In this document: in pieces, positions 5,278 to 58,825 of the stretch
Position numbering within the stretch: position 1 is the stretch's first letter
How the letters are laid out: each line of letters starts with the position of its first letter
Assembly: GCF_004010195.1 (NCBI RefSeq)
Contig: NC_057738.1
Coordinates: 41,693,693-41,757,692, forward strand
Direction of reading: 5' to 3'
Source: Chiloscyllium plagiosum
Taxonomy: Eukaryota
Length of the DNA: 64,000 nucleotides
Notes under the pieces: model-generated
What the model was told of the DNA's origin: nothing
The model's input: only the letters and a program-made list of their open reading frames with translations
The model's database searches: none
Position numbers and translations under genes: made by a program

Positions 5278-6016
5278 TTACTGTGGAAGCAGCCACTCAG
5301 CCCATCAAGTCCACACCGATCCTCCGAAGAGCATCCCATAAAGAACCAACCCCCTACCTAATCCCTGTAACCCTGCATCAACATGATAAACCCAGGCCTC
5401 CTTCACCGCCGCTCCCTCACCACCAGACGCCTGGAGGAAGAGCGCCTCATCTTCTGTCTCTGAACACTTCAACCCCAGGGCATCAATGTGGACTTCAACA
5501 GTTTCCTCATTTCCCCTTCCTCCACCTCACCCTAGTTCCAAACTTCCATCTCATCACTGTCCCCATGACTTGTCCTACCTGCCTAACTTCTTTTCCACCT
5601 ATCCACTCCCCCCTCCCCCCGACCTATCACCTTCATCCCCTCCCCCACTCACCTATTGTACTCTATGCTACTTTCTCCCCACCCCCACCCTCCTCTCACT
5701 TATCTCTCCACCCTTCAGGCTCTCTGCCTGTATTCCTGATGAAGGGCTTTTGCCCGAAACATCGATTTTACTGCTCCTCGGATGCTGCCTGAACTGCTGT
5801 GCGTTTCCAGCACCACTCTAATCCAGACTGTGGTTTCCAGCATCTGCAGTCATTGTTTTTACCAACATGACAAACCCACCTAGCCTCATATCCCTGGACT
5901 CAATGGGTGATTTCCTGTGGCCAATCCACCTAACCTGCACATCTTTGGTCTGTGGGAAGAAACTGGAGCAACCAGTTGAAACCCACACAGACACAGGGAG
6001 AATGTGCAAATTCCAA
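5278..6016 (-). mobile_element. HE1-like V-SINE interrupted by a PLE fragment
   Basis: Matches other copies (ccacctaacctgcacatctttgg...gggagaatgtgcaaa); split at 5394/5863. Confidence 0.85.
5395..5862 (+). mobile_element. PLE 3' end (Neptune-type, family A) with hammerhead motif
   Basis: RRLEEERLIF..TLQPQGINVDF (GIY-YIG domain C-terminus); CTGATGA-A-GGGC-TTTT-GCCC-GAAA at 5736-5759; TSD caacatga(t/c)aaaccca at 5379-5394 and 5863-5878. Confidence 0.9.
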
Positions 6017-6344
6017 ACATTGATGGGGTATCTTTTCACAAATTGATAGAAAATTTACACATTAATAATGATGAGCCCCATTAATCTCATCTGTATTTTG
6101 GCAAGAAAATATAGAGAAACAATTTATTGACCAACAATGCTCCCTCTTGTCTGTGCTGTATCTTTTGTATGTTCTCCATTTGAATCTCATACTGTTTTCT
6201 TAATTACATAAATAAATGAATTTACAGATTATTGATATCTGCGCAAGTCTAATAGATTTGGATCCTCCCCAGATATCTTCACATTAGGCCATGACATGAC
6301 CTGGTACCAGCACATTTAATGCTTCATATTGAATAAATTAATTT

Positions 6345-6870
6345 AGGGGGGCATGGGGTGTGGGCATCATTGCCTGGGCCAGCATTTACTGCCCATCCCC
6401 AGTTGCTCTTGAGAAGGTGGTGATTTTCCTTCTTGAACAGCTGCAGTCCATCTGGTATAGACAGACCCTTGGGGAGTTCCAGGTTTTTGACCCAGCGACT
6501 CTGAGGAACAGCGATATATTTCCAAGTCAAGATGGTGAGTGGTTTGGAGCAGAATTTGCAGGTGGAGTTATTCCCATGCACCTGTTGCCCTTATCCTTCT
6601 GGATGGTCCTGTGTTTGGAAGGTGCTGCCTAAAGAACCTTGGTGAATTTCTGCTGTGCATCTTTAGACAGTAGCAGCAGTGTGCACTGAATGTCAATGGT
6701 GGAGGGAATGGATACGTGTGGATGTGGTACCAGTCAAAGGGGTTATTTTGTGCTGGATGGTGCCTTGCTTCCTGAGTGTTGTTGGAGCTGCACCCATCCA
6801 GGCAAGTGGGGAGTATTCAATCAGACTCCTGACTCATGCCTTGTAGATGATGGAAAAGTCTGTTTCTGGG
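6345..6870 (-). mobile_element. Old LINE (CR1/L2 group) 3' fragment
   Basis: Degenerate ORF2 end (..DGLQLFKKENHHLLK) and a 3' tail ggatgggcagtaaatgctggccc shared with a SINE family in this window. Confidence 0.7.
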
Positions 6871-7399: not shown

Positions 7400-7617
7400 G
7401 TTAAAAATCACACAACAGCAGGTTATACTCCAACAGGTTTAATTGGAAGCACACTAGCTTTCGGAGCGACGCTCCTTCATCAGACGATACTCTTGATGAA
7501 GGAGCATCGCTCCAAAAGCTCGTGTGCTTCCAATTAAACCTGTTGGACTATAACCTGGTGTTGTGTGATTTTTAACTTTGTACACCCCAGTCCAACACCG
7601 GCATCTCCAAATCATGA
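7400..7617. mobile_element. Miniature palindromic PLE insertion (family B)
   Basis: Inverted arms 7400-7483 and 7493-7576, tail 7577-7617, exact 12-bp TSD aaatttttcaga at 7388-7399 and 7618-7629. Confidence 0.92.
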
Positions 7618-7894: not shown

Positions 7895-8490
7895 AGGAGT
7901 TGAAGTGACATGTTACGGCTGTCCAGGACATTGGTTCGGTCATTTCTGGAATATTGCGTTTCAGTTCTGATCTCCCTGCTGTAGGAAACATGTTAAACTT
8001 GAAAGGGTTCAGAAAATATTTACAAGGATGTTGCCAGGTTGTGAGGGTTTGAACTATAGGGAGAGGCTGAATAGGCTGGGGCAATTTTCTCTGGAGCGTC
8101 AGAGGCTGAGGGATGACCTAATAGAGGTTTATAAACTCATGAGGGACATGGATAGGGTGAACAGCCAAGGTCTTTTCCCCAGAGTAGGGGAGTCCAAAAC
8201 TAGAGGGCGTAGGCTTAAGGTAAGAGGGGAAAGATATAAAGGAGACCTAAGGGGCAACGTTTTCACGCAGAGGGTGGTACTTGTATGGAATGAGCTGCCA
8301 GAGGAAGTGGTGGAGGCTGGTACGATTACAACATTTAAAAGGCATTTGGATGGGTATATGAGTAGGAAGAGTTTGGCGGGATATGGGCCAAATGTTGCAA
8401 ATTAGACTAGAATAATTTAGGATATCTGGTTGGTGTGGATGAATTGGACCGAAGGGTCTATTTCTGTGCTGTGCACCTCTATGATTCTAT
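7895..8490 (+). mobile_element. CR1 (HER1-like) 3' fragment
   Basis: ORF 8028-8405: RERLNRLGQFSLERQRLRDDLIEVYK...FTQRVVLVWNELP, plus 3'UTR. Confidence 0.95.
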
Positions 8491-8908
8491 GTTGAAAAAT
8501 CAGTCATGATCACAGAGTTTATTGCCTGAGACATGGATCAGAATAACAGCAGCTCTTGGCCTGCGAAGAGGCAGGTAGCATCTGTGCCAGGGAGAGGCTA
8601 TTTCCAACATGAGATACTGCGTCTCAAATTACAACAGTGACTACACTTCTAAAGTACTTGATTGACCATGAAACACTTTGAGGTGCCCAAGGGATCATGA
8701 AAGGAACAATAGAGATGCAATCTGCCCCTTCCTTCAGTCATTTTTTTTCTTTGACCTTCAGAAACATGACAACCAAATTTTCCACCACCATTAAGTGTGT
8801 GTTTTCTTGGTGCAGCCATATCAACCCTTTCATCTGGTGAATGAATGTCCTGCAAAACATGATTCGCCTCCCAGTCTTTCAAACCCCATTTTCAAGGCTC
8901 ATCAGGAA

Positions 8909-9014
8909 TATGTGATGCTGGTGTTGGACTGGGATGGACAAAGCCAAAAATCACACAGCACCATGTCCAAGTAAACCTGTTGGACTATAACCCGGTGTTG
9001 TGTGATTTTTAACT
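8909..9014 (-). mobile_element. Family B miniature hairpin insertion lacking the hammerhead centre
   Basis: Tail plus short inverted arms (aaaaatcacac.. / ..gtgtgattttt); TSD tcatcaggaa at 8899-8908 and 9015-9024. Confidence 0.8.
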
Positions 9015-9239
9015 TCATCAGGAAAAAGGTAGAGAGCTCACCATTGGTCTGGCTGAGCGTATCACAAGCATACTTATGAAGCCTGGCGCAATCCACAGAG
9101 AATAGTACGATTCAGGGAAAAACAGTTTACTAGGGTCTATATCCTTCACTGGCATATTGTACCCCAGTCTATCAAATCTCGAGGATGGACTGCAACAGCT
9201 GAACAATGATAATATTTCGTCTTCAGGATATGATTGCGG

Positions 9240-10059: not shown

Positions 10060-10285
10060 ACAGCTCTATCTTTCCTTCACCACCATTAGCAGTCCATTTA
10101 TCTTTTGTTTTGAAAGATTTGTTCCACTCTCTACTTCTCTCCCTCTGTCAACAACATAAAAATCATCATTTTCCAGCTACTTTCCGTTCTGAAAAGGAGT
10201 CATATTGGACTCAAAACGTTAACTGTGTTTTTCTCTCCATGGATGCTGCCAGATCTGCTGAGTTTCTCCAGCAATTTCAGTTTTA
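10060..10285 (+). mobile_element. PLE family C 3' end with decayed hammerhead motif
   Basis: gttctgaaaaggagtcatattggactcaaaacgttaac, then gatgctgccagatctgctgagtttctccagca. Confidence 0.75.
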
Positions 10286-11019: not shown

Positions 11020-11375
11020 CCATAAACCAAGAGCAGAATTAGGCCATTCAGTCCGTTCAGTATGCTCCGTCATTCATTGAGTTCATGGCTGCTCTGCTAG
11101 CCCTCAAATCCATTTTCCTGCCTTTTCCCCTTAATCCTTGACTCCTGTCCTGATTAAAAATCCATCTATGCCTTGAATATACTTAATGACACAGCCTTGA
11201 AAGTCATCTGTGGTAAAGAATTCCATAGATTCACAATCTTCTGAGAGAAGAAAATCCCCCTTTGTCTAAAAATGTGTCACCCATACTCTGAGATGATGCT
11301 CTCTTGTTTGAGACTCTCTCACAAGAAGAAACAATTCTCCCTATCTATACTGTCAATTGCTCTATTAACCTTGAG
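11020..11375 (-). mobile_element. CR1 3' fragment
   Basis: Reverse match to the 3175-3720 type of CR1 end. Confidence 0.8.
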
Positions 11376-11399
11376 TTAATGTTTCAGATTCATTGACCT

Positions 11400-12045
11400 G
11401 TCTTCAGCAATGATTGTAGCTAGGAAAAGGTTGGAATGTAGGCTGAAAGCTGGGATGGGGTTACAGATGGAGGAGTAAACAATAGGTCGAGATGGAGGCC
11501 AGAGAGTGAGAAAGCAGCAATTGGACAAACAAAAGAATGGGGAAAGGTCAGTTTGGGGTGGATAGTTGCTAACGGGGGCCATTAGTGGCTGATTAGATTG
11601 GGGTTGTGGTAGTATCCCATGTGATAACAAGGTATGGTTTGTGGGGATTGGGGTAAGGGCAAGGGAGAGCTCAGTCCATACAATGATTGAACTTGAAATA
11701 GAGTCCTGAAGGCTGCAGTGTCCCTTAACTGAAAACGAGACGCTGTTTTTTCAGCTTGCATTGAGCTTTGTTGGAGCACTGCAGCAAGGCTGAGACAGAG
11801 AGGTTCGCCAAGGAACAGGGGTGTGTGTTGAAGTGAGAGTCAACATGGAGCTCTGGGTCAATAACTCAATATCGATTTCAATAATATTAGGGCTTGAACA
11901 CCTTCTCCCAATGTTCTTTGCCCAGCCTCCTCACACCAGGCCTTGTCATCACCTGACCTGCTACCAGAATCAACCCATTAGGAATCATTAATCATTTCCA
12001 TTAGGAGCTGTTATGCTCCCCCCTTAGTTTTACCTATTCCCTTTT
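11400..12045. mobile_element. Degraded PLE 3' fragment with inversion
   Basis: Minus strand 11400-11855 matches the endonuclease end and 3'UTR at 58270-58620; 11860-12045 repeats part of it on the plus strand. Confidence 0.7.
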
Positions 12046-12049
12046 GTCA

Positions 12050-13690
12050 GGACAAAATTGGCTTGAAGATAGGAGACAGAGGGTGGTGATGAAAGGCTGT
12101 TTTTCAGACTGGAGGCCTTTGACCAATGCCACAGGAATCGAAGCTGGGTCCACTACTTTTCATCATCTACATAAATGATTTGGATGTGAATATTGGAGTT
12201 ACGGTCAGTAAGTTTGCACATGACACCAAAATTGGATGTGTAGTGGACAATGAAGAAGATTATCTCAGAGTACAATTGGATCTTGATCAGATGGGCCAAA
12301 GGACCAAGGAATGATGGATGGAATTTAATTTAGATTAATGTGAGGTGTTTCATGTTGGTAAGACAAATCAGGGCAAGACTTACTTTAATGGCAGGGCCCT
12401 GAGAAGTGTTGCCAAATAAAGAGACTTAGGGGATCCAGTGCACAGTTCCTTGAAAGTGGAGGCATTGGTAGACAGAATAGTGAAGAAGGTGTTTAGCACG
12501 TTTACCTTCACTGGTCAGTACATTGAGTACAGAAGTTGGGACATCTTGTTGTGGCTCTACAGGACATTGGTTAGGCCACTTTTAGAAAACTGCTTACCAT
12601 TCTGGTCTCCCTGCTGTAGGAAAGATATTATTAAATGTGAGAGGGTGCAGAAAAGATTTACAAGGATGTAGCCAGGATTGGGGGTTTGAGCTAAGGGGAA
12701 TTAAACTGAATTAGCTTTACTGTCACATGTACTCATATAAGCACTGTGAAACATTTACATACCGCGGCACCATCTTAGATACTAAGGTGTCTAGGTACAG
12801 CTTCTTCAGGTACAAGATCCTAGAAAACAGAGAAATAATAAGTCCAGCATTGCAAAAATAAAAGTTCGGAATAACAGCCTTCCAACCCAGAACATGCTGG
12901 CACCTCACTCCAGTCTGCACCGGGCCGTGGCTTCACCTCAAGGTTCATGAGATTGGGAGGTTGCTCTGGAATCACCTCGAGACCAGGAGACCACATCGAG
13001 ACCGCATCAGGCTGACAGACCACTACATACTGTCTGAAGACCGCCTCACAGGCCGAGGGGACGCTATGCCTCTGGGTGGATCCCTGGTCATGTCTGCACT
13101 GAGGCTGGGTGTTGTCAGAGGCTGGGAATCGACCGGGGGCCCTGAGCTGTTCGAGGCTGGGAGAGAAGAAAATAAAAAGAACACAGGGAGGGAAAAAAGA
13201 AGAATTGGTGGAGCCGACAATCTCCAGCTGAAGCGTCTTACTCTGCTGCCATCTTGGACTTGATGCTGGAGATATTTTCTCTGGAGCATTGGAGGCTGAG
13301 GGGTGACCTTATAGAGGTTTACAAAATCATGACAGGCATGGATATGGTAAATACCCAAGGTCTTTTCCCCAGGGTAGGGAGAGTCCAAAACTAGAGGGCT
13401 TACATTTAAGGTGAGAGGGGAAAGATTTAAAAGGGACCTGAGGGGGTAGCTTTTTCACGCAGAGGGTGGTATGTGTTTGGAATGAGCTGCTAGAGGAAGT
13501 AGTGGAGGTTGGTACATTTACTACTTTTAAAAGGCATCTGGATGGGTAAATGAATAGGAAGGGTTTAGAGGGATATGGGCCAAGTGCTGGTAAATGGGAT
13601 TAAGTCAATTTAGTATATCTGGGACGTGGACGATTTGGACCGAGAGGTCTGGTCCCATGCTGTATAACTCCATGACCCTATGGCTCTATC
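12050..13690 (+). mobile_element. CR1 ORF2 RT fragment to 3' end, interrupted at ~12700-13258
   Basis: PQESKLGPLLFIIYINDLD...SKFAHDTKI (RT motifs B and C), LYRTLVRPLLE..., 3'UTR. Confidence 0.95.
12700..13258 (-). mobile_element. Non-autonomous element with Rex/Babar-like ends nested in CR1
   Basis: Starts ccaagatggc on minus strand; ends ttcacagtg..gtacatgtgacagtaaa, like the Rex tails at 17950-17993 and 63780-63826; no RT motif seen. Confidence 0.6.
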
Positions 13691-13765: not shown

Positions 13766-13803
13766 AGTTCTGAAGAAGGGCCACTGGGCCCGAAATGTCA
13801 ACT
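13766..13803 (+). ncRNA. Minimal type I hammerhead ribozyme motif (family C)
   Basis: AGUU-CUGAAGA-A-GGGCC-ACUG-GGCCC-GAAA-U-GUC-AACU; helix I AGUU/AACU. Confidence 0.65.
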
Positions 13804-13852
13804 CTGTTTTCTCTCTACAGATGCTGCCAGACCTGTCGAGTTTTTCTTAAAA

Positions 13853-14183
13853 TTCCTACAGTGTGGAAACAGGCCCTTTGGTCCAACAAGTCCACATCGA
13901 AGAGTAACCCACCCAGATCCATTCCCCTACCCTAATACACTACATTTACCTCTGACTAATGCACCTAACCTACACATCGCGGACACTATGGGCAAATTAG
14001 CATGGTCAATTCACCTAACCTCCACATCTTTGGATTGTGGGAGGAAACCAGAGCACACGGAGGAAACCCAAGCAGACACAGGGAGAATGTGTAAACTCCA
14101 CACAGAGAGTTGCCTGAGGCTGGAATCAAACCTGGGTCTCTGGTGCTGTGAGGCAGCGGTGCTAACCATTGAGTACCGTGCTG
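13853..14183 (-). mobile_element. HE1-like V-SINE, near full length
   Basis: tRNA-like head with A box (tcaatggttagc) and B box (ggtttgattcc), V domain, CR1-like tail gggcctgtttccacactgtag. Confidence 0.92.
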
Positions 14184-15819: not shown

Positions 15820-16635
15820 GGAATGCAGTTCACAAATCTTGGAAAGTGGAGTCGCTGGGTAGATAAGGTAATGAAGAAGGCATTTGGTATGCTTGACTTT
15901 ATTGGTCAGATTTAAAAATCACACAACAACAGGTTATAGTCCAAAAGGTTTATTTGGAAGTATAAGCTTTCAGAGCACTGCTCCTTCATCAGGTAACTAG
16001 GGCAGGATCATAAGTCACAGAATTTATAGTAAAAGACCATAGTGTCATGCAATTGAAACGATACATTGAGAAGCAACAATCTCTGTTTATTCAACATATT
16101 GTTTTAATTGCATACATTTCTGGTCTCCCTGCAATAGGAAAGGTGTTGTTAAGCTTGCAAAGATTCAGAAAAGGATATTGCCAGGTTGGAAGGTTTGAGT
16201 TGTAGGGAGAGGCTGAATAGGCTGGGACTGTTTTCCCTGGAGCATCAGAGGCTGAGGGGTGACCTTATAGAAGTTTATAACATCATGAGTGACATGGAGA
16301 GGGTGATTAGACAAAGTCTTTTCCCCATGGTGGGGTGCCCAGAACTATCGGGCATAGATTTAGGGTGAGAGGGGAAAGATTTAAAAGAGGCCGCAGGAGC
16401 AACTTTTTCACGCAGAGGGTGGTGGATGTATGGAATGAGCTGCCAGGGGAAGTGGTGAAGGCTGGTACAATTACATCATTTAAAAGGCACCTGGATGGGT
16501 ATAAGAATATGAAGGTTTAGAGGGATATGGGCCAAATGCTGCCAAATGGGACTAAATTAAGTTAGGATATCTGGTCGACATGGACGAGTTGGACCGAAGG
16601 GTCTGTTTCAATACTGTATGACTCTGCGACTTCTA
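15820..16635 (+). mobile_element. CR1 3' fragment containing a PLE-B insertion
   Basis: RERLNRLGLFSLEHQRLRGDLIEVY; FFTQRVVDVWNELP. Confidence 0.92.
15911..16062 (-). mobile_element. PLE family B pseudo-LTR fragment
   Basis: ttaaaaatcacacaac..agctttcagagcactgctccttcatcagg (decayed hammerhead). Confidence 0.8.
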
Positions 16636-17154
16636 TGAACCTCTGACTTTAAACTGCAATCACCTCAATTTTGACATGTGTAAAACATAATTATCTTAAT
16701 GCCATTTTAAGCATTTTACGTGTGTGTATTTGAAGGCACTGTTTATTTACTTTTGTTAGGGTTAGTAGTTAATAATATTCCTTTCAGTTTTACTTAAATA
16801 ACTTTGTAATCTGGCACCTTCACTTTGATCTTGTTAGTTATAGTTGCAAGAATGTTGGGCCGAATGGCCTTTCGCTGAGCCATAACAATTCCATGATTCC
16901 AGTTAGATTTTGATTGTACAGTGATAGCTGTGAGCTGAAAAAGACATGAAAATAATTGTTGCAACTGACAAAGGGAAGAAATAGAATAAAGGGGAGTCAG
17001 ATGTCTCTCTTTGCCTGGCAGTAACAAGACAAAAGTAATTTTAAAATATTTATTCAACACATAAATGCTCAGAAGAACATTCATCACATTTTTAGTCAAG
17101 TATTCAAATAATTAGTCTATGGTAGTATTGTTCGCCACAGTCAGGAATTTTTAA

Positions 17155-19314: not shown

Positions 19315-20083
19315 ATCTATGTCATGATGTTTAGATTGATTCTAATCTAAAAAGTGAGATAACAGAGTTTTACATAAATTCATGCAGTTTTTGAACAAAG
19401 TACAATGTAACTCTGCAAGTACAAATTCAGCCCACAAAATATACGTGTGCATGTGGGTACCGGGCAAAGGCTATGACAACGGATGAATGGGCACCGCACA
19501 ACAATCAACAGACAGGAGGGTTCCCTCCCAGTTGGGGAACACTTCAGTGGTCCAGGACATTCAGCCTCGGACCTTCGGGTGACCATCCTCCAAGGTGGAC
19601 TTCAGGACAGGCAGCAGAGAAAAGTGGCNNNNNNNNNNNNNNNNNNNNNNNNNNNNNNNNNNNNNNNNNNNNNNNNNNNNNNNNNNNNNNNNNNNNNNNN
19701 NNNNNNNNNNNNNNNNNNNNNNNNNNNNNNNNNNNNNNNNNNNNNNNNNNNNNNNNNNNNNNNNNNNNNNNNNNNNNNNNNNNNNNNNNNNNNNNNNNNN
19801 NNNNNNNNNNNNNATCGTAACACAGAATTTATAGCAAAAATTTGCAGTTGATTTACACATGAAAGAAGTGAAACTATCACTGTATTCTAACAGATGAAAG
19901 GCTTAACAGACAATCAATTTTTCAATGTATAATTTAAGTTACATCACACTGTAAATTTTTGCTATAAATTCTGTGTTACGATTGAGCCCTCCACTATCAC
20001 CTGATGAAGTACCGTCGCTCCGAAAGCTAGTGTGCTTCCAATTAAACCTGTTGGACTATAACCTGGTGTTGTGTGATTTTTAA
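19315..20083. mobile_element. Rearranged PLE family B spanning an assembly gap
   Basis: RMNGHRTTINRQEGSLPVGEHFSGPGHS (GIY-YIG domain), near-identical to 30770-30908; pseudo-LTR with hammerhead motif at 19998-20032. Confidence 0.88.
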
Positions 20084-20487: not shown

Positions 20488-20720
20488 TTGAAAAGTGCAG
20501 CACTGGAAAAGCACAGCAGGTCAGGCAGCATCCAAGGAACAGGAGAGACGACATTTCAGGCATAAGCCCTTCATTCGGAATGTGTGTGTGCTTGTGTGTG
20601 TACGCTTGTGTGCATGTACGTGTGTTTGTGTGTATGTGTGCGTGTGTATGTGTGTGTATGTGTCAGGAGGGGGAGGGGGCTGAGTAAGATAATATCTTTA
20701 CAAAATAGGGGAGGAAGTGG
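20488..20720 (-). mobile_element. PLE family A 3' end with internal (TG)n expansion
   Basis: gaaaagcacagcaggtcaggcagcatcc..ggcataagcccttcatt, then TG tract at 20581-20663. Confidence 0.75.
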
Positions 20721-20744: not shown

Positions 20745-21165
20745 GGTGTAGTGTTATCGCTGGACTGCTCAGCCAGAGTCCCAAGTAATATGCTTGGCAC
20801 CCAAGTTCGAATCCTGCTGTGGCAGATGATGGAATTTGAATTCAGTAAAAATCTGGAAATCAGAGTTTAACGATGACCATGTCAGGGAAATTCCCATCTC
20901 GTTCACTAATATCCTTGTGTGAAGGAAACTTCCACCCTTACCTGACCTAGACAAGCAGGAGGCTGGGAGAGCACAGTAAGCCAGGCAGCATCAGGAGGTG
21001 GAGAAGTCGATGTTTCTGGTGTAACCCTTCTTCAGGACCTATCCTGATCTGGTTTATATGTAACTCCTGACCCACAGCAATGCGGTTGACTCTTAACTGC
21101 CCACTTGGCAATAAATATTGGCCTAGCCAGTGATACCCTCATCCTGTGAATGAATTTTTAAAAAA
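20745..21165 (+). mobile_element. Third-family SINE with a nested PLE-A-like piece (~20950-21037, minus)
   Basis: B box gttcgaatcc; core ggttgactcttaactgccc; tail ggcaataaatattggcctagccag. Confidence 0.75.
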
Positions 21166-23121: not shown

Positions 23122-23340
23122 GAAGAGTGCGCTGCTGGAAAAGCACAGCCCATCGGGCGGCATCCGAGGAGCCGGAGAGTTGATGTTTCAGGCATAAGCT
23201 CTTCATCAGCCCTTCCTCATGACGGGCTTATGCCTGAAATGTCAATTCTCCTGCTTCTCAGATGTTGCCTGATCGACTGTGTTTTTCCAGCACCACACTC
23301 TTCGACTCTGATCTCCAGCATCTGCAGTCCTCACTTTCTT
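23122..23340. mobile_element. Miniature palindromic PLE insertion (family A)
   Basis: Inverted arms ~23122-23209 and ~23215-23303 meeting at two decayed hammerhead cores; tail to 23340. Confidence 0.85.
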
Positions 23341-24009: not shown

Positions 24010-24300
24010 AGAGTGGGTTTTTTCTGGGTGCTCTGGTTTCCTCCCACAGTCTAAAGATGCACAGGTTAGGTGGATTAGCAAAGATAAATTACCCACAGTG
24101 TCCAGGGATGCGCAGATTAGGTGGATTGGCCAAGCCAAATTACCCACAGTGTCCAGCAATTTGCAGGTTAGGTGGATTACCCAAGGGAACTACAGGGTTA
24201 TGGTGATAGGTAGGATGGTGGGTCTGGGAGGGATCCTCTTCAGAGGGTCAGAATGGACTCGATGAACCGAACGGCCTGCTTCCACATTGGGGATTTGATG
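24010..24300 (+). mobile_element. HE1-like SINE, 5' truncated, with an extra internal repeat unit
   Basis: Three copies of the (c)aggttaggtggatt unit. Confidence 0.85.
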
Positions 24301-24529
24301 ATTCTAAATGCTAAGAAAATCCATTTCATGGCAATTTATGCAAATCTGTGACAAGGCATAACCATCTGCCTCCCCCACCAACACAGACTTTCCCCTCCCC
24401 ACTGTCCTGATTTTGGTCCTTTCTATGAAACAGTTTGAAAATATTGACAATTTTGTATCATTTAGCAGGAAAATAGAAAATTTAAGCAAGTTCATGAAAT
24501 CCTTTAATCTTTTTCTTTTCATATCACAG

Positions 24530-24870
24530 AATTCCTACACTGTGGAAGCAGGCCATTCAACCCATTGAGTCCACATCACCCCTCTGAAAAGCATCCCACC
24601 CAGACCCCCCACCATCCCTGTAATTCTGTATTTCCTATGGTTAAGCCACCTAACCTGCATATCCCTGGACATTGTGGGTAATTCAGCATGGTTAATCCAC
24701 CTGACCTGCACGTCTTTGTACTGTGGGAGAAAACCAGAGCACCTGGAGGAAACCCATACAGACTCAAGGAAATGTACAAACTCTACACAGATAGTGAGGC
24801 TGAGGCTGGAATCAAACCTGGGTCTCTGGCGATGTGAGGTTGCAGTATTCAACATTAACCACCATGCCAC
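24530..24870 (-). mobile_element. HE1-like SINE
   Basis: Head, V domain and tail as at 13853-14183. Confidence 0.9.
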
Positions 24871-24954
24871 CCAAATATTTGTGCATTATTATATGCACAT
24901 TAATTTCCAGTCTTAAAATTTGAAGTATTCAGCAACTTAAAGCATTCAGACAAA

Positions 24955-25090
24955 CCTTCATCAGAACACTTCATCATTTCTGATGAAATGTCACTGGACT
25001 CGAAATGCTAACTCTGCTTTCTTTCTTCACACAGTTGTTGCCGGCCTGTTGAGGTTCACCAGCAATTTCTGTTTTTGTTTTTTTTTAGTT
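24955..25090 (+). mobile_element. PLE family C 3' end with a short inverted core copy
   Basis: ccttcatcagaa ... ttctgatgaaatgtcactggactcgaaatgctaactc. Confidence 0.65.
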
Positions 25091-25689: not shown

Positions 25690-25790
25690 GTCAAAACGTG
25701 TGGTGCTGGAATAGCACAGCAAGTCAGGCAGCATTCGAGGAGCAGGAGAGTCGACGTTTTGGGCATAAGCCCTTCATCAGGAATGTGGGC
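25690..25790 (-). mobile_element. PLE family A short 3' piece
   Basis: gtcgacgttttgggcataagcccttcatcaggaat. Confidence 0.85.
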
Positions 25791-30000: not shown

Positions 30001-30043
30001 ATAGTGGAGGGCTCGATCGTAACATAGAATTTATAGCAAAAAT

Positions 30044-38139: not shown

Positions 38140-39140
38140 TGCATGGTGGCTCAGTGGTTCGCACTGCTGCCTCATAGCTCCAGGGACCCAGGTTTGACTC
38201 CACCCTCGGGTGACTGCCTGTGTGGAGTTGACATGTTTTTCCATGTCGCTACGTGGGTTTTCTCTGGGTGTTCCAGATTCTACCCACAGTCCAAAGATGT
38301 GTGGGTTATGTGGATTGGCTATGCTAAATTGCCCATAGTGTCCAGCAATGTGCAGTGTGATGATGCTGCTCCTTTAACAAAGTGGTGTTGGCCTTGGTTT
38401 TTTTCAAAAGTGTTTTACAAGACTCAGGTTCCAAAATTTCTGGCTTGATCTACTTGAAGAAGCTTTTAAGTTTAAAAATTAAAGCCGAGTGGCCAGTTCT
38501 CCCAGCTCAGCTCTGCTCTGGTTTGGTTTGGCTTGGTTTGTATTTAGCAGTCTGGCTGTTCAGAACAAGCAGTCAGTCCATTTTGAGGCTGCAGGTCAAA
38601 GAAATAGCTACAAGGAAGAAGGTGTTCCATGCCAAATCTTTCTGCCATCTCTCTCTTTCTCTGACATCTTTCCTGTAAGAACCTGTGTTTAATTTTACCT
38701 TTTGTGCCAAGGGGATGTTTATGGGGATTGTTGCAAATATTGAGAACGGCACCATTAAGTTGGGATATCCGTTGGGTTTTTGGATAGTTTAAGTTATTCT
38801 ATATTCTTTTCTCTTTTGTTGGTGTTTCATTCGATAATCTTGCTAATAAATTCTGCTTTGTTTAAAACTAAGTTGCTGGGCCAGCTGCATCACTCCTGAA
38901 ATATCCACCTTACACCTGCTTAAAGCAACTAGCAAAGCTAGGGTCTGGGCTACTTTCGTGAAATATTTTGCAGGGGTTTGGCCTGGTACATCCCAGTAGG
39001 CTCGGTTGATTAATCATGAGAAATGCAAGAGTGCAGGGTATAAGGTTGTGAGGATGGGTCCGGGTGGGATACTCTTCAGAGGGTCAGTGCAGACCTGATG
39101 GGCTGAAGGGCCTGCGTCCATAAGTAGGGATTCTGTGACA
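38140..39140 (+). mobile_element. HE1-like SINE split by a solo LTR
   Basis: Head 38140-38355; remainder 39000-39140. Confidence 0.85.
38356..38995 (+). mobile_element. Solo LTR, 640 bp
   Basis: TGTGATG...CATCCCA ends, 4-bp TSD gcag/gtag (1 mismatch), internal AATAAA near 38845; inserted cleanly in a SINE. Confidence 0.75.
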
Positions 39141-40560: not shown

Positions 40561-41204
40561 CTCTCCCAAATTACAACATTTGCAACTTACGTTGAATTTA
40601 TGACTTCTGTTTATCAACCCACTTGTCAGAAGAGGAAATTTCTCCTCACTTGGCCAATCTATACCCCTCATAAATATTGGATCTGTTTGTTACAACTGTC
40701 CTCCCATCCTCCTCTGCTCAAAGGAAAACAATCAGAACTTCTCCAATCACTCCACAGAAATGAAATCACTCATCCCTGCTATCACCCTACCAAACTCCTC
40801 TCCATGGATTTGATGACTTCCTGAAATTACATTCAGGGACAGGCTGTTTTACTATAAATGCGGAGCATAACAGCATATTTTTTTAACAATTCTACACTCC
40901 ATTTAAAAAGTCCCACATACCTTAGAGATTGTCAAACTTTATGAATATACTTACATTTTCAGACACCTTTTGCACTTCTAACCCCTCCCTGTGTATCACC
41001 ATTTTGTTCCCTTCCACACTACATCATTTCACTGGAGTAAAGGAAAAAAAGGACTAAGGATTCATGGATCATTTCCCCACTGGCTGTTCGCTCTACTGCA
41101 ACATCTGGGAATGGCAGTTTGTTGTTTTTTTTTCCTTTCTTCAGTGAATTTTATGCCAGTAAGGGTATTATTCATGGTCTTGAATGTTTTCTTAATTTGT
41201 TTTG

Positions 41205-42025
41205 TCACTAAAGAGGAGGAAAACAACAACAAACTGCCATTCTTAGATGTCACAGTAGAACAAACAACCCATGGGGATCTTCAAACCAGTGTCTATTGGA
41301 AAACAACAGATATGGAACAAATATTGAACTACAGAAGCAATTATCCCAACACCCACAAATGGAGCTCCATTAGAACACTATTTCAATGGCCACTGCACAT
41401 TGCAGCACAGAGGAACTATGCAGAGCAGAGGAAAATCACCTGTACAGCGTATTCAAAAAGAATGGGTACCCAATGAACATAGTCCTCCAATTTCTCAGCA
41501 ACATACCCCAACAAGGAGACAAAACACATCCAGAAATCCTAGCCACTCTCCCCTACATCAAAGACAACTTGGAAATGACTGCCAAACCACTCAGACCTCT
41601 TGGCATCATGGTAGCCCGCCAAACCACTCAGACCTCTTGGCATCATGGTAGCCCACAAACCCAGTAACACACTAAAACAGCAGCTAATGAACTTAAAAGA
41701 ACCTATACAGAAAACAAGCAAAACTAATGTCATTTACAAAATACCTTGCAAGAACTGCAACAAACACTACATTGGATAAACAGGCAGAAAACTAGCCATC
41801 AGGATACATGAACATCAACTAGCCACAAAAAGACATGACCCACTCTCACTAGTATCCTTATGTATGGATGAGGAAGGACATCACTTCGACTGGGACAACA
41901 CATCCATCCTAGGACAAGCCAAACAGAGACACTCATAAGAATTTCTAGAAGCATGGCATTCCAACTGGAACTCTATGAACAAACACATTGACTTGAATCC
42001 CATTTACCACCTCCTCAGAAAAAGA
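41205..42025 (+). pseudogene. PLE RT thumb and GIY-YIG remnant without a Cys linker
   Basis: KLPFLDVTV..SVYWKTT..; FKKNGYP; LPYIK; TNVIYKIPCKNCNKHYIG*TGRKL..RIHEH; GHHFDWDNTSIL. Confidence 0.92.
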
Positions 42026-42144
42026 ACAGGAAATGACATTATCATAGGAAATGATGTCACCACAGAAAATTATATCACCAACCCAAGGAAAGTCAAACAT
42101 ATAAATAGAAAGTGGGCTACACCACCAGTGCTTCATTCGGAGGC

Positions 42145-42184
42145 TCACTGAAGATGTTACCGAGCATGGTGATGAAACGTCTGA
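42145..42184 (+). ncRNA. Minimal type I hammerhead motif (family D)
   Basis: UCA-CUGAAGA-U-GUUACC-GAGCAU-GGUGAU-GAAA-C-GUC-UGA; helix I UCA/UGA. Confidence 0.7.
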
Positions 42185-43960: not shown

Positions 43961-44044
43961 AGGAGAAAGTGAGGACTGCAGATGCTGGAGATCAGAGCTG
44001 AAAATGTGTTGCTGGAAAAGCGCAGCAGGTCAGGCAGCGTCCAA
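43961..44044 (-). mobile_element. 84-bp PLE family A tail insertion
   Basis: Exact 14-bp TSD ggagtgaattattt at 43947-43960 and 44045-44058. Confidence 0.9.
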
Positions 44045-44899: not shown

Positions 44900-45050
44900 T
44901 CTCTTGCTTCCTCTGTCTACAACATGAAAACCATCAATTCCACCACCTTGTCAGTTCTGCAGAGCAGTATATCGGAATCAAAACCTGAACTCTGTTTCTC
45001 TCTCCAGAGGTGCTGTTGGACCTGCTGAATTTCTCCAGCACTTCCATTTT
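44900..45050 (+). mobile_element. PLE family C 3' end, decayed
   Basis: aactctgtttctctctccagaggtgctgttggacctgctgaatttctccagca. Confidence 0.6.
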
Positions 45051-53677: not shown

Positions 53678-54075
53678 AAAACATTTAAAAGGCATCTGTA
53701 TGTGTAGATGAATAGAAAAGATTTAGAGGGATATGGGTCGTGAGTGTGGTGTTGGAAAAGCACAGCAGGTCGGGCAGCATCTGAGAAGCAGGAGAATCGA
53801 CGTTTCGGGCAAACGTCCTTCAGCAGGAAATGGGAAGTTTTCCTGATGAAGGACTTTTGCCCGAAACATTGATTCTCCTGTTCCTTGGCTGCTGCCTGAC
53901 CTGCTGTGCTTTTCCAGCACCACACTCTTGACTCTGGTCTCCAGCATCTGCAATCATCGCTTTTTCCTTTAGAGGGATATTGGCCACGTGGGGCAAATGG
54001 GACTAGATTAATTCTGGTCAGCACGGATGAGTTGGACTGAAGGGTCTTTTCCATGCTGTACATCTCCATGACTCA
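53678..54075 (+). mobile_element. CR1 3' end split by a PLE hairpin
   Basis: acatttaaaaggcatctg..tttagagggatat [insert] tttagagggatat..catctccatgactc. Confidence 0.9.
53735..53967. mobile_element. Miniature palindromic PLE insertion (family A)
   Basis: Arms 53737-53830 and 53839-53932, tail 53933-53967; exact 13-bp TSD tttagagggatat at 53722-53734 and 53968-53980. Confidence 0.93.
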
Positions 54076-54784: not shown

Positions 54785-56405
54785 TAGAGTCATAGAGTCA
54801 TAGAGATGTACAGCATGGAAACAGATCCTTCGGTTCAACCTATCCACGTCGACCAGATATCCCAACCCAATCTAGTCCCACCTGCCAGCACCCGGCCCAT
54901 ATCCCTCCAAACCCTTCCTATTCATATATCCATCCAAATGCCTCTTAAATGTTATAAATGTACCAGCCTCCATCACATCTTCTGGCAGCTCATTCCATAC
55001 ATGTACCACCCTCTGCGTGAAAACGTTGCCCCTTAGGTCTCTTTTATATCTTTCCCCTCTCACCCTAAACCTATACCCACTAGTTCTGGACACCACCACT
55101 CCAGGGAAAAGACTTTGTCTATTTATCCTATCCATGCCCCTCATAATTTTGTAAACCTCTATAAAGTCACCCTTCAGCCTCCGACGCTCCAGGGAAAACA
55201 GCCCCAGCGTGTTCAGCCTCTCCCTGTATCTCAGATCCTCCAACTCTGGCAACATCCTTGTAAATCTTTTCTGAACCCTTTCAAGTTTCACAACATCTTT
55301 CCGATAGGAAGGANNNNNNNNNNNNNNNNNNNNNNNNNNNNNNNNNNNNNNNNNNNNNNNNNNNNNNNNNNNNNNNNNNNNNNNNNNNNNNNNNNNNNNN
55401 NNNNNNNNNNNNNNNNNNNNNNNNNNNNNNNNNNNNNNNNNNNNNNNNNNNNNNNNNNNNNNNNNNNNNNNNNNNNNNNNNNNNNNNNNNNNNNNNNNNN
55501 NNNNNNNNNNNNNNNNNNNNNNNNNNNNNNNNNNNNNNNNNNNNNNNNNNNNNNNNNNNNNNNNNNNNNNNNNNNNNNNNNNNNNNNNNNNNNNNNNNNN
55601 NNNNNNNNNNNNNNNNNNNNNNNNNNNNNNNNNNNNNNNNNNNNNNNNNNNNNNNNNNNNNNNNNNNNNNNNNNNNNNNNNNNNNNNNNNNNNNNNNNNN
55701 NNNNNNNNNNNNNNNNNNNNNNNNNNNNNNNNNNNNNNNNNNNNNNNNNNNNNNNNNNNNNNNNNNNNNNNNNNNNNNNNNNNNNNNNNNNNNNNNNNNN
55801 NNNNNNNNNNNNNNNNNNNNNNNNNNNNNNNNNNNNNNNNNNNNNNNNNNNNNNNNNNNNNNNNNNNNNNNNNNNNNNNNNNNNNNNNNNNNNNNNNNNN
55901 NNNNNNNNNNNNNNNNNNTATAGTTCCCTGGCTTGTCCTTACCACCCTTCTTAAACAGTGGCACCACGTTTGCCAACCTCCAGTCTTCTGGCACCTCACC
56001 TGTGACTATCGATGATACAAATATCTCAGCAAGAGGCCCAGCAATCACTTCTCTAGCTTCCCACAGAGTCCTCAGGTACACCTGATCAGGTCCTGGGGAT
56101 TTATCCACCTTTAACCATTTCACGACATCCAGCACTTCCTCCTATGTAATATGGACATTTTGCAATATGTCACCATCTATTTCCCTCCAGTCTACATATT
56201 CCATATCCTTTTCCACACTAAATATTGATGCAAAATATTCAATTAGTATCTCCCCCATTTTCTATGGCTCCACACAAAGGCCACCTTGCTGATCTTTGAG
56301 AGGCCCTATTCTCTCCCTAGTTACCCTTTTGTACTTGATATATTTGTAAAAACCCTTTGGATTCTCCTTAATTCTATTTGCCAATGCTATCTCATGTCCC
56401 CTTTG
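54785..56405 (-). mobile_element. Young CR1 (HER1-like) ORF2 fragment spanning a gap
   Basis: LKVDKSPGPD..VPEDWRLANVVPLFKKGGKDKPGNY; LERVQKRFTRMLP..; tail (tagagtca)n. Confidence 0.96.
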
Positions 56406-56739
56406 TATGAGAATCCATGATAAGATCACTGGCTGGAAGTAATTACACACTTACTTATACTGAAGTATTCTGGTGCACAACATCAAGCCAACCAAGCATC
56501 TGGCTAGGTCTTCCTAGGAACAGTCTTTAGAACCTGATGGCCAAACATTACCTCATGATGTCAGTTAACCCTTTCAGGTACTATCCTGTACAACAGAATC
56601 ACAGCTTTCTGACGCTGAGGTCGTCATGCTGTCCACTGAGGCTACAGCTGATTCTGAGATGGCTGCAAAATAAAACCTAGCTATTTTCATAATTAACCCT
56701 GTGTCTGCTGCAGCTCAGTGACTGCCTTTGGCTCAGACT

Positions 56740-58825
56740 CACTCCACATGGATTCCAACTCAAGTTGAATCCCTCCTGTTTTGAATCCACCCAAGATCAT
56801 TGATATTCCACCATGTTCAATGCTCCACAGACAGCTGCTCTCACCGTATCCAGAAGTCCACACTGAGTGCTGTGTGGCACCACATGCAGACTCTCGATCT
56901 CTCTCTCCATGCTTGCTCAGAGCTGCACCACTCTCCAGTTCCACTTCATCCTCCGGTTCCATTGCCGTGCTAACAAGAAACTTTCTCTTTTCCTTTCAGG
57001 TATCAAGGCCACAAGATGCAACAACTCAGGGATACCCATGGACCCCTAGGTCCTTCCTCCCCTCCCCTTCCCTCTGACTCCATCCCCAACCCCAACCCCA
57101 CCTCCTGTCGGGTATTCACCATCCCTTCTAACCTTCCACTCTCTGATGCTGAGCATTCTGTGACTCAGCAAAAGGCTATGTTTTATGCCTGTGCGTGCCC
57201 ACCTTAGTGAATTTCAGGAGATAGGGGCAGGCATCTGAGAGCTGAATTTTAGGCACCAAATGACCTTGAACTCTTCTTCTGTCATCTTCCCCCACCCTCG
57301 TGCCTATTTCTTTGGATAAGAGTCCTCCCACTGTCTCCCAGACCCCTTTGCCCAGCTCCACCCCTCCCTTTGCTTGTTTACCTAAACTCAGTCTGTTCAT
57401 TGAGAACTGTCATGACAATGGTCGCCTCAATTTCTCTGCACCCCCCTCACCCATTCTCCTCCTCCTGGGAACTGACTGCACCCTATGCTCTCAGATCCAA
57501 CCCTGACTTTGTCATTAAGCTTGTGCTGATCTGGATGGTGCTGTTGTTGTCTGGCGGACTGACCTCTACATTGCAGAGGCTGAGTGCCAGCTCTTAGATA
57601 CCTGTCCCTATCTCCTTCTGGACCATGACCCCACGATGGACCATCAGGTTATTCTGTTCACAACAATCACCATCCTCAATCCATCCAGGAATCTTCCCCC
57701 ACCCTACACAACTCACATCAGCCTTCTTCCCAAAACCCACAAGCAGGACTGCCTAGCAGACCCATTGTTTCAGCCTGCTCCTGCCCCACAGAATTCATCT
57801 CTTCCCAACTCAACTTGGTTTTTCTGTCCCCTTGTCCAGTCCCTTCCCACTTATATCCATGAATCCTCTGACGCCTCATGTCAGTTTCAGAATTCCCAGT
57901 TTGCGGGCTCCAGCCACTTCCTCTTTACCATGAACACACAATCCCTTTACACAACTATCCCCATCAGGATGGCCTCAGGGTCTCCATTTCTTCCAACCAA
58001 CCCCCACTGCCCCACAACCCCATGGCACCTTGCCCGAAACTGTAAAAGGTGTAACACTTGCTAATTTACTTCCTCCCTCCTCAGTATCTTTGGGCCCAAA
58101 TATACTTCTCAGGTGAAGCAGCACTTTATCTGCACTTCACTCAATCTAGTCTACTGCATTTGCTGCTTGCAATGTGATCTTTACATTGAGGAGATGAAGT
58201 GTAGTCTGGGTGATCGCTTTTCAGAAAACCTATCTTCTGTCCACAAAAAAAGACCTAGGGCTTCCAGTTGCCTGCCATTTCAACACACCACCATGTTCCC
58301 TGACCAATATCTCTGTCTCAGGCTTGCTGGAGTGCTCCAACGAAGCTCAATGCAAGCTGGAAGAACACCATCTCATTTTCCATTTGGGAACTCTCCAGCT
58401 TTCTGGACTCAATATCAAGTTCAACAATTTTAGACACCTTCTCCCATGACTTTATCCCAACCCCACACACCAGGCCTTGTTATCACACAGTCTGCTATTA
58501 CACACAACCCACTGTTAGCCACTAACAAGCCCCATGAGCATCTGCAGTGTATTCATTCTCACGGCTGACCATTATCCACTCCTTTATCTGTCCAGTTGCT
58601 CTTCTGTCTCTTTGGGCTCTATCTCCATCCATCGTTTACTCCTTATTCCTTCTCCCATACCCCCATCTTCTACATAAAAAAAAACAATGTTTTCCTGGCT
58701 CCCATCAGTTCTGAGGAAGGTCACTGGACCCAAAATGTTAACTCTGACTTCTGTCCATAGATGCTGCCAGACTTGCTGAGCTTTTCCAGCAATTTCTGGT
58801 TTTGTTTCTGATTTGCAGCATTTCA
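56740..58825 (+). mobile_element. Degraded Neptune-type PLE (family C) with internal deletion
   Basis: DKG-like ADLDGAVVVWRTDLYIAEA, LLPKTHK, FTMNTQSLYTTIP (RT motif A), CKRCNTC linker, LVYCICC..LYIEE (GIY-YIG), LEEHHLIFHLGTLQLSGLN; decayed hammerhead at ~58707-58744. Confidence 0.88.

Follow-up and report, generated by a model that had tools for sequence, protein, structure and literature searches.

Four families of Penelope-like retroelements with minimal type I hammerhead motifs in a 64-kb stretch of shark DNA

RESULTS AND DISCUSSION

Motifs and coding remnants in the window

The window analysed here is a stretch of 64,000 nt from Chiloscyllium plagiosum (NC_057738.1, assembly GCF_004010195.1, positions 41,693,693–41,757,692 of the forward strand). 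It contains minimal type I hammerhead motifs (min-HHRs) of four families of Penelope-like retroelements (PLEs), which are named A to D in Table 1. The motif is of an already known kind; it has the arrangement that Cervera and De la Pena (2014, PMC4209133) described for PLE pseudo-LTRs of metazoans, here in shark DNA. New beyond the known kind are the probable copy number of family A-like sequence, a sharp 5′ boundary, and a TATA-like box with an initiator-like base in families B, C and D. One motif of each family had been quoted in an earlier note, and all four are present with the quoted arms at 27823, 29966, 13766 and 42145. In total, we tabulated 25 copies that bear the motif: 11 of family A (a divergent subfamily among them), 6 of B, 7 of C and 1 of D. 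This makes the former estimate of about 20 intact or decayed cores a fair one.

The affiliation of the motifs with PLEs also stands, as each of the four families is tied to RT or GIY-YIG remnants. In 4/4 families the motif is located downstream of these remnants; for family B this is across an assembly gap, which separates the endonuclease piece at 19450–19629 from the motif at 19998. The B coding remnants share 62–86% identity (best protein) with shark RT-endonuclease proteins, and the D remnant shares 62% over 243 residues (E 5e-84). For family C, the RT piece matches at E 5e-07 and the linker plus endonuclease at 7e-04. Judged by the cysteine linker, on which the clade labels rest, B and C would be Neptune-like, and D, which has no linker, Poseidon-like. 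Family A may group with C, by its endonuclease end only (49% identity to the C counterpart, E 2e-05). No element with both pseudo-LTRs was found within the 64-kb window. The B motif at 29966 forms the inverted arm of a unit spanning 29914–31515, and one short inverted piece (41074–41147) lies beside the D coding remnant.

Table 1. Hammerhead motifs, coding remnants and insertion units, in window coordinates
Family	Position	Strand	Feature	
A	5395–5862	+	5′-truncated element: endonuclease C-terminus (~5395–5505), 3′ UTR, HHR, tail	
A	5733–5766	+	Motif with intact core; 2-bp helix I, decayed palindrome (ACAU)	
A	20547–20580	-	Motif, two core changes; short copy adjoining CA/TG microsatellite	
A	21005–21039	-	Motif of a divergent subfamily related to A; GGUC/GACU in helix I, helix II unpaired at its first position	
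A	23122–23339	.	Fold-back pair: motifs 23179–23212 (-) and 23213–23246 (+)	
A	25750–25783	-	Motif, G12 altered; short copy without tail	
A	26245–26372	-	128-bp tailed unit, 11-bp target duplication	
A	27823–27856	-	Min-HHR, descriptor match, predicted cut after 27826 (GUC); no tail	
A	37560–37700	-	Short tailed copy, starts ~11 nt before core; motif 37658–37691, one core change	
A	43961–44042	-	Tailed piece without HHR, begins ~11–15 nt past cut site; 14–16-bp target duplication	
A	53738–53967	.	Fold-back pair: motifs 53796–53829 (-) and 53840–53873 (+); tail on plus arm	
B	7400–7617	.	Fold-back insertion unit: two arms head to head, cores 9 nt apart; 12-bp target duplication	
B	7452–7486	-	Min-HHR, descriptor match; tail-less arm of inverted pair	
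B	7490–7524	+	Motif, two core changes; tailed arm of inverted pair with 7452–7486	
B	8911–9014	.	Fold-back pair without HHR, one arm tailed; 12-bp target duplication, one mismatch	
B	15961–15995	-	Motif of an older subfamily with intact core, helix I unpaired at its first position; TATA-like box at -36	
B	19998–20032	+	Motif, helix II broken; 142 nt upstream 3′ UTR	
B	29966–30000	-	Min-HHR, descriptor match, predicted cut after 29969 (CUA)	
B	30041–30907	+	Coding remnant: RT C-terminal part, cysteine linker, frameshifted GIY-YIG endonuclease, then assembly gap	
B	31389–31423	+	Tailed motif, G12 altered; 142 nt upstream 3′ UTR, TATA-like box at -38	
C	10186–10223	+	Second-subfamily motif, helix II GAGUC/GACUC, two core changes	
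C	11375–11410	-	Motif with intact core, helix I unpaired at its first position; endonuclease end at 11686–11757	
C	13766–13803	+	Min-HHR, descriptor match, predicted cut after 13799 (GUC); helix III AUGU	
C	24977–25012	+	Decayed motif, begins ~8 nt before core	
C	44953–44991	+	Decayed motif, three core changes	
C	57525–58431	+	Coding remnant: RT piece with internal deletion, cysteine linker, endonuclease	
C	58707–58743	+	Motif, G12 altered, one helix II base absent	
C	62776–62814	+	Second-subfamily decayed motif, begins 4–12 nt before core	
D	41207–42007	+	Coding remnant with C-terminal RT part and a GIY-YIG endonuclease, no cysteine linker (Penelope/Poseidon-type)	
D	42100–42106	+	TATA-like box, 48 nt before core	
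D	42145–42184	+	Min-HHR, descriptor match, predicted cut after 42181 (GUC)	

Core conservation and helix pairing

A strict descriptor of our own making gave five matches in the window and none in 300 of 300 dinucleotide shuffles. We also re-coded in a script the RNAmotif descriptor that PMC4209133 gives in its Fig. S7 (CUGANGA and GAAANNUH, helices I and II of 3–7 bp). It returned the same five matches, at 7483, 27853 and 29997 on the minus strand and at 13770 and 42148 on the plus strand, covering all four families; 500 shuffles averaged 0.008 matches and never gave more than 1. The resulting density, for one chosen window, is 79 per Mb versus a null of 0.13 per Mb.

All catalytic-core letters are kept in 12 of the 25 copies, and 8 of 25 also keep 4/4 helix II pairs; adding a helix I of at least 2 bp leaves 6, and of at least 3 bp, 5. 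The extra base between positions 9 and 10.1 is present in 24/25 rows, the copy at 62780 being one base short there. The G10.1-C11.1 pair prevails in A, in B and among the C representatives, and is G-U in the sole D copy. The helix III tetramer is AGCU in 6/6 B copies and ACGU in 4/10 A, 1/7 C and 1/1 D copies, the remainder being mostly CA/TG decay; three C rows were re-registered afterwards, and all three proved to be imperfect palindromes. The four-nucleotide palindrome that had been noticed in the best copies is thus intact in 12/25 rows, but the C copy quoted for it reads AUGU. Position 5761, in the palindrome, is G in the majority of contigs of two organisms. Across the tallied CpG sites, 25/41 read CA or TG.

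The extra base, the G10.1-C11.1 pair and the palindrome (15.2-16.2, also given as 15.1-16.1) agree with the 2014 consensus. Like the metazoan PLE motifs described in PMC4209133, those of the window are of type I with no real helix III, fall into several consensus families per genome, are mostly single motifs from truncated elements and include close pairs on opposite strands. Different from that set, in which cartilaginous fish are absent from both the 56 motifs of Fig. S3 and Table S1, the window is from a shark.

Helix covariation was tabulated for six hand-picked representatives. Between families and subfamilies, 46/48 helix cells are paired, with a column-shuffle mean of 28.1 and 0 of 20000 shuffles reaching the observed value; up to four pair types occur per helix position. 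The covariation that had been claimed holds between families but not within family A, whose copies show CpG decay and where pairing is no better than in shuffles (240 of 500). Family C shows modest covariation of its own (both-side changes: 13 to 109 of 500 shuffles, one row being out of register). Together with the conserved core, the between-family pairing points to selection on the fold.

Of the helix I arms first described, AUC/GAU occurs in only 1/10 core A copies, that at 27853; its homology extends upstream by only 2 nt, so the A of this arm may be flank. In B, C, D and the 21035 subfamily the majority helix I reaches 3 bp or more, whereas in family A it is UUC/GAU, two pairs plus a U-U mismatch at the third, which falls outside the PMC4209133 descriptor. 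A 2-bp helix I has been reported for D. virilis.

We give next to no credence to the idea that the motifs are chance matches amplified inside a repeat. The motif is short and copies within one family are not independent; folding z-scores of single copies are weak in 5/6, and an Rfam search up to E 10 matched neither the whole window nor a 161-base piece to any hammerhead family. Against these stand the descriptor null, the paired cells, the identity of the consensus with that of the 56 published motifs, and the recurrence of the motif at the same place downstream of the endonuclease in four families with unlike flanks and helices; the null, the pairing and the position refute this reading. In 6/6 copies tried, the hammerhead dimer fold is 9–21 kcal/mol less stable than the best cofold, by nearest-neighbour energies that ignore core tertiary pairs and are uninformative as to self-cleavage.

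Short copies are insertion units

The short pieces are insertion units: they show target duplications, their arms are inverted, and a tail of ~40 nt is present on one side only, which internal priming (Frangieh et al. 2024, PMC11167929) predicts. Homology extends ~57–72 nt or ~97–103 nt past the cut site in 15/16 A and B copies, the exception being the 23209 copy (83 and 66 nt); the two 3′ end classes differ by about 40 nt. In 5/5 inverted pairs only one arm is tailed. Target duplications were detected in 6/21 units at p of about 0.003 or less and in a seventh at about 0.03; none was found in 14/21, unit boundaries being approximate. The 5395–5862 element, which sits inside a SINE-like repeat, and the 53738–53967 pair each have a 16-bp duplication with one mismatch. 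The 26245–26372 unit begins 2–3 nt before the core of its motif (26340–26373, G12 altered). In the 23122–23339 pair, whose plus arm is tailed, 6 nt separate the cores; a target duplication was sought there and not found.

5′ truncation, an adjacent inverted copy, a 30–40-bp tail at one end and two 3′ end classes past the hammerhead are likewise features of the units of endonuclease-positive (EN+) PLEs of the Neptune and Penelope/Poseidon clades (Craig et al. 2021, PMC8557442; PMC11167929). Different from those accounts, in the parts considered here, are the sharp 5′ boundary at helix I and the TATA-like box 30 nt before it.

The units also resemble non-LTR retrozymes, reported in one cartilaginous fish (10.64898/2026.07.22.740005), in that both have a type I hammerhead within short, pseudo-LTR-related non-coding sequence. 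Non-LTR retrozymes consist of at least two tandem units, each with a complete hammerhead. In the window, none of 11 tandem-repeat rows covers a motif, self-comparison gave no same-strand tandem, no two intact copies stand in tandem, and the close pairs are inverted and bear PLE tails and target duplications; tandem retrozymes were therefore rejected as the identity of the short pieces.

It is improbable, too, that the pieces propagate themselves as non-autonomous elements (SINE-like or monomeric retrozymes) that have masters of their own and are moved by PLE protein. The short units are discrete and target-duplicated, contig depth summed over the motif exceeds that of the next bin upstream by a factor of ~5 to 12, and animal retrozymes have been proposed as pseudo-LTR derivatives (10.64898/2026.07.22.740005). 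However, no array of motif-bearing units exists among the tandem-repeat rows, and short copies are 92–93% alike to a long copy of the same subfamily, with the same 3′ end and differing 5′ starts. They begin downstream of the TATA-like box and so would be without that promoter. They also lack the RNA beyond the tail that the protein of the anole element needs (PMC11167929). The earlier suggestion that motifs are spread partly by short non-coding pieces is not supported as it was put; these pieces resemble by-products that arise when the element itself inserts rather than a separate vehicle.

Family A-like sequence likely amounts to 10^4 to 10^6 copies, with wide bounds. If the 79 per Mb of this chosen window were typical, the genome would exceed the largest vertebrate counts, ~4,000 in coelacanth and 9,000 in Xenopus tropicalis (PMC4209133), by one to two orders. 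The large reservoir of ribozymes once proposed holds for copy number, but with 5/25 copies passing the descriptor it would be mostly a reservoir of decaying motifs.

A sharp 5′ boundary and a candidate promoter

Thirteen of the 25 copies begin at most 13 nt before the core, their starts spreading from -13 to 0, and 0/25 start inside it. Family A has a sharp 5′ boundary 3–4 nt before the core, which coincides with an initiator-like A. About 13% of partly aligned contigs in two organisms end at -4/-3: loose ends before 5732/5733 number 1680/13010 and 1483/11717, versus about 8 per place if uniform. The flanks beyond are unlike one another (agreement 0.30–0.34), and 1149–1304 contigs have plain junctions to unlike flank at 5732. 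Part of the 5732 peak can come from another A subfamily that diverges upstream of there.

A TATA-like box lies 30–35 nt before an initiator-like A in 4/4 long B copies, 1/1 D and 1/5 long C copies, compared to 0.6% of random places under a TATA-plus-initiator rule that was framed after the sequences had been inspected. In B the spacing is exactly 30 nt in 4/4 copies, including a subfamily about 78% alike; in the C copy at 58707, CATAAAA lies at -38 and the initiator-like base at -4. Since the box stands ~30 nt before the initiator-like base, the transcript of B, C and D may start with the ribozyme. The short A copy at 27853 also fits the rule, in apparent flank. B and C copies mostly begin 46–142 nt or more upstream of the core, two B copies sharing a start at -142, and a single start at -8 does not explain them. 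The Penelope promoter of D. virilis is TATA-less, with a start well upstream of its hammerhead.

The boundary could instead be made at insertion, by a polymerase pause or template switch just after helix I helped by complementarity of the helix I arms (fold-back), or by a poly(A)-type cut; TATAAA and CATAAA can serve as variant poly(A) signals. We consider this possible, though less likely than not. Among the 15 joints listed, the one with most contigs (17 and 23; 11 RNA reads) joins 5732 to 5771 on the opposite strand, near the helix I arms; starts scatter over -13 to 0 with no single base, and the long copy of family A, the family with the sharp boundary, has no TATA-like box. But if the fold blocked the polymerase, stops would be expected at the helices or within them, and 0/25 copies start inside the core; such joins are also far rarer than plain junctions. 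The initiator-like A and the constant B spacing also argue against it.

Transcription, insertion and cleavage

The overall explanation that we favour, and hold to be quite probable, is that these are PLE min-HHRs located just downstream of the coding remnants, and that they are likely abundant through priming just past the motif. Reverse transcription would be primed no more than 60 or 100 bases to its 3′ side; even a very short insertion would then nearly always include the motif, which likely accounts for the abundance. According to PMC11167929, two internal RT start sites define the PLE tail, and 5′ truncation of the template gives a shorter product. The more specific proposal, to which we give about an even chance, is that the 90–135-bp copies would be run-off cDNAs halting at the RNA 5′ end, this end being a transcription start set by the pseudo-LTR promoter directly before helix I.

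The circular-RNA model of Cervera and De la Pena, in which cleavage at NUH and re-ligation shape the copies and insertions record the cut, is improbable here. Selection on the fold is consistent with it, as are two pieces that begin just past the cut site (a third, at 15809, is ambiguous) and the 5732–5771 joint near that site. On the other side, 25 copies continue unbroken across the cut site, the two pieces that clearly start downstream of it do so 8 and 11–15 nt away, and 5764 has no row in the best 18 of 1752 loose-end rows. RNA reads gave no pile-up of ends, in a poly(A) single-cell library that is a weak test. For the anole element, PMC11167929 describes insertion without cleavage, normal insertion of HHR mutants and no reads ending at the site; in published work on other species, uncut RNA is the main insertion template.

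The fold would be under selection only in active master elements, where the ribozyme would cut the RNA late or rarely, and hardly any of the dispersed copies is expected to be active. Published cleavage by PLE hammerheads of other species is weak and dimer- or protein-dependent.

Hammerhead motifs of four families and their decay

The published descriptor of the minimal type I hammerhead ribozyme (HHR) motif of Penelope-like retroelement (PLE) pseudo-LTRs (RNAmotif pattern, Fig. S7 of PMC4209133) was re-coded and run on the window. It gave five matches in 62,997 called bases, that is 79 per Mb (Poisson 95% range about 26–185, calculated by hand), compared with a rate of 0.13 per Mb over 500 shuffles of the window that keep its dinucleotides. 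The motifs are real and well above chance, and the four sequences quoted in the earlier note, from PLE families A to D, were found exactly as written. The descriptor misses the usual form of family A, the commonest of the four. An Rfam search of the window returned no hammerhead family; its best match, mir-515, is below threshold and lies at a family B fold-back pair, i.e. two head-to-head arms. Upon folding of single copies, one of the six tried reached a z below −2.

One copy of each family served as seed for profile searches, which with hand registration gave 25 motif-bearing copies (11 A-type, six B, seven C and one D); 12 are on the minus and 13 on the plus strand, with no strand bias. 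All core letters are kept in 12 of the 25 copies, helix II as well in eight, two base pairs of helix I in addition in six, and three in five. Two further family pieces have no motif, and a third (15809) is ambiguous. Cleavage is predicted to follow GUC in families A and D, CUA in B, and GUU or GUC in C.

The helices had been claimed to covary, which holds between the families. When six representatives, one per family or subfamily, were compared, a partly circular choice as good copies were picked, 46 of 48 cells were paired, and as many as four kinds of pair occur at a position; the column-shuffle control had a mean of 28.1, and 0 of 20000 shuffles reached the observed value. Within family A, however, both-side changes are no more frequent than in shuffles (240/500), and 8 of 11 rows show no pairing at the third position of helix I. 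The AUC/GAU helix I assigned to this family is present in one copy, whereas UUC/GAU is the majority state. Family C shows modest both-side changes (shuffles 13/500 for cells and 109/500 for pairs), which reflect subfamilies. At two consensus CpG sites, CA or TG was tallied in 25 of 41 cases (13/23 and 12/18). Taken together, the pairing between families and the CpG decay within copies indicate that the fold was kept among masters and lost in copies.

Linkage to Penelope-like coding remnants

Family B contains the C-terminal part of the reverse transcriptase (RT), a cysteine linker and an endonuclease, and its frame matches proteins named from Hemiscyllium, Heptranchias, Scyliorhinus, Mustelus and Chiloscyllium. 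The family D remnant shares 62% identity, along 243 residues, with a protein that combines RT and GIY-YIG, and is without the linker; its frame matches a Stegostoma protein. Upstream of 58711, family C contains one RT piece (E 5e-07) and one linker plus endonuclease (E 7e-04), and the endonuclease end of family A is 49% identical to that of family C. Contig loose ends at 5395 have one common upstream continuation (agreement 0.71–0.72). By the linker criterion in the available part of PMC8557442, families B and C appear Neptune-like and family D Poseidon-like. No homolog was found with the frameshifted family C endonuclease frame as query, Pfam gave no RT or GIY-YIG match in the 10 window frames searched, and two exact-pattern scans of metagenome contigs gave 0 matches. 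Two of the three assembly gaps lie where inverted repeats meet within family B elements, so the assembly probably under-represents long young copies.

Short insertion units

Of 16 copies from families A and B, 15 have 3′ homology that extends about 57–72 or about 97–103 nt beyond the predicted cut site, and in all five inverted pairs the longer end is on one arm only. Target duplications of 11–16 bp were found in six of 21 units (p about 0.003 or less versus random pairs) and in a seventh at p about 0.03; the other 14 have none. The short units follow the PLE insertion pattern described in the accessible sections of PMC8557442. According to the available portion of PMC11167929, reverse transcription has two internal start sites, both 3′ of the hammerhead, and the stretch between them is the tail (an extra ~40 nt at one end of the unit); a template shortened at its 5′ end gives a shorter product; and hammerhead mutants insert normally, with cleavage requiring protein. 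Since priming is internal and just downstream of the hammerhead, the motif is among the first sequences copied.

That the short pieces are retrozyme-like vehicles is not supported. The tails and target duplications match PLE insertion, and the window has no tandem motif array, so the units are not retrozymes as defined in the accessible part of 10.64898/2026.07.22.740005. That the short copies are independent short elements is improbable. Because the close pairs are inverted, a transcript through one would be expected to fold into a long hairpin instead of a hammerhead dimer. The target duplication flanking one B fold-back pair contains, as reverse complement, the opening 10 bases of the family A motif; the pair may have inserted into an old motif remnant, or this may be chance.

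About half of the copies begin just before helix I

Thirteen of the 25 copies begin at most 13 nt before the first core base (9/10 core A, 2/6 B and 2/7 C); none starts inside the core, one copy (21035) being unplaceable. For seven of these 13 starts, a target duplication or the facing arm fixes the position; the others rest on homology loss, an effect that divergence between subfamilies could also produce. Among partly matched contigs of two organisms, loose ends before 5732 and 5733 (−4 and −3 of the long family A copy, counted from the first core base) make up 1680 of 13010 in one and 1483 of 11717 in the other (about 13%); the flank agreement is 0.30–0.34. Splicing was set aside as the source of the boundary, as the starts vary over 13 nt and the flanks are unlike. 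Ends defined by ribozyme cleavage receive little credence from us: no loose end lies at the cut site among the 18 of 1752 loose-end rows listed.

Positions 5732 and 5771, on the two sides of the motif, are also joined on opposite strands in 17 and 23 contigs of the two organisms and in 11 RNA reads. Such a join might arise by fold-back through helix I, or from an arm that has its start close to the cut site.

General definitions of TATA-like and initiator-like motifs were used, picked after the data had been seen. By these, a TATA-like box stands 30–35 nt before an initiator-like A in each of the four long copies of family B (with the A at −8 or −6), and box and A occur at this spacing also in family D (−13) and in one of five long C copies (−4); three of the five have TCAGTTC at −4. 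The long family A copy has no TATA-like box. The rule is satisfied by 0.6% of random places; one of eight short copies satisfies it too, in what seems to be flank. In Fig. S3 of PMC4209133, TCA(G/T)T occurs within ~15 bases before the core in 10 of 56 motifs (counted by eye; rows related), compared with roughly 3 expected by a hand estimate of chance, which hints that an RNA start there may be general.

Two observations count against an RNA start at helix I. In the available part of PMC2377424, the D. virilis promoter is TATA-less and upstream of an intron; and two family B copies, 97% alike, at 19859 and 31250, both start exactly at −142. Each of the two adjoins a different inverted piece; their shared start may mark a second favoured boundary, or the two insertions may be related. 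Without such an RNA start, the boundary could come from a poly(A)-type cut, or from pausing or fold-back at helix I; we consider this rather unlikely. Pyrimidine tracts lie 3′ of the motif and where the family A tail ends; in family C, AG and ATG come after the tract. They are possible splice acceptors of a leader intron.

Proposed origin of the short copies

We see about an even chance that the short copies are run-off cDNAs reaching the 5′ end of an RNA, with that end set by a promoter immediately before helix I. This promoter reading joins the motif anatomy, coding linkage, insertion pattern, copy decay and 5′ boundary observed here to the internal priming, uncut template and weak dimer- or protein-dependent cleavage known, from the accessible parts of the reports, in other species.

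A wider reading is tentative, and we lean against it as a whole. The pseudo-LTR promoter would start the RNA on the first helix I bases, making the ribozyme the 5′ end of the message, and short copies would record this start. Internal priming would yield a strong-stop-like cDNA of 90–135 nt, and the short genomic copies, numbering in the tens to hundreds of thousands, would be failed jumps marking the start site. A dimer of the 5′ and 3′ hammerheads would remove the cap upon cutting and would hold the two ends for the template jump required by long copies.

Short copies start sharply at helix I, and three of the four families have a TATA-like box beside this point, which makes the role of the hammerhead in PLEs directly testable. 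Should the RNA begin there, the ribozyme would lie at the cap, and the short copies would map the transposition intermediate at base resolution.

Copy number, RNA and novelty

To estimate the scale, positions 5150–5900 were compared with contigs of two organisms at 80% likeness. The summed depth, which is not a copy number, was 1.19e7 and 1.07e7 in the bin 5774–5799 just behind the motif, and 15.5 and 12.9 on unique flank. Allowing for up to 31-fold overcount from overlapping contigs, family A-like copies are put at 2.5e4 to 8e5. With a genome size that we take to be 3–4 Gb, the window density would give about 1e5 or more descriptor matches genome-wide, an extrapolation that leans high because the window was chosen for its content. 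The available part of PMC4209133 reports about 4,000 minimal HHR motifs in coelacanth and about 9,000 in Xenopus tropicalis. Sharks may hold one of the largest hammerhead-type motif sets reported in a vertebrate.

In one poly(A) single-cell RNA run, 2909 of 12,955,460 records matched, 1882 of them under 90% alike. Records cover the motif in both orientations (452–587 versus 701–869), with no pile-up of RNA ends over it in this run; a second run gave no matching record. This fits read-through of dispersed copies, without bearing on cleavage.

The motif class is already known; the core finding adds lineage and scale. The literature searched, which mostly leaves out subscription journals, gave no paper describing PLE hammerheads in sharks or an RNA start at helix I. 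The interest rests on the scale and on the testable boundary at helix I.

Other repeats in the window

The window is repeat-rich DNA of shark type, has 41% GC and contains three assembly gaps. Pfam searches on its frames identified no host gene; one candidate, a bicarbonate-transporter exon at 33013–33309 on the minus strand, had a single weak, sub-threshold match (68 of 99 listed frames) and was unconvincing on reading. The 3′ ends of a LINE, presumably CR1-like by its protein motifs, recur in the window and are 70–85% alike. We take a second family, at 13851–14181 and elsewhere, to be SINE-like; ARAGORN found no tRNA in it. The long family A copy is inserted within one of its copies.

Positions of features in the window
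Feature	Positions	Remark
Family A endonuclease end	5395–5505	
Family B coding remnant	30041–30907	
Tandem duplication, 37 nt	41581–41661	within family D coding remnant
Gaps at family B inverted-repeat junctions	19629–19813, 30909–31121	
Target duplication of B fold-back pair	8899–8910, 9015–9026	
Pyrimidine tracts	13805–13825; A tail ends at 5862, 23337, 43961, 53967	
LINE 3′ ends	4280–4571, 7962–8491, 13265–13688, 16115–16638, 28810–29212, 37164–37564, 54785–55313, 55938–56141	70–85% alike
SINE-like repeat copies	5280–5378 with 5868–6019, 13851–14181, 24013–24289, 24520–24878, 25250–25551, 38130–38355, 63203–63452	first is the copy split by family A
Tandem triplication, 51 nt	24057–24185	inside one SINE-like copy
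Exact repeat, 101 bases	63050–63150, 63900–64000	reaches window end
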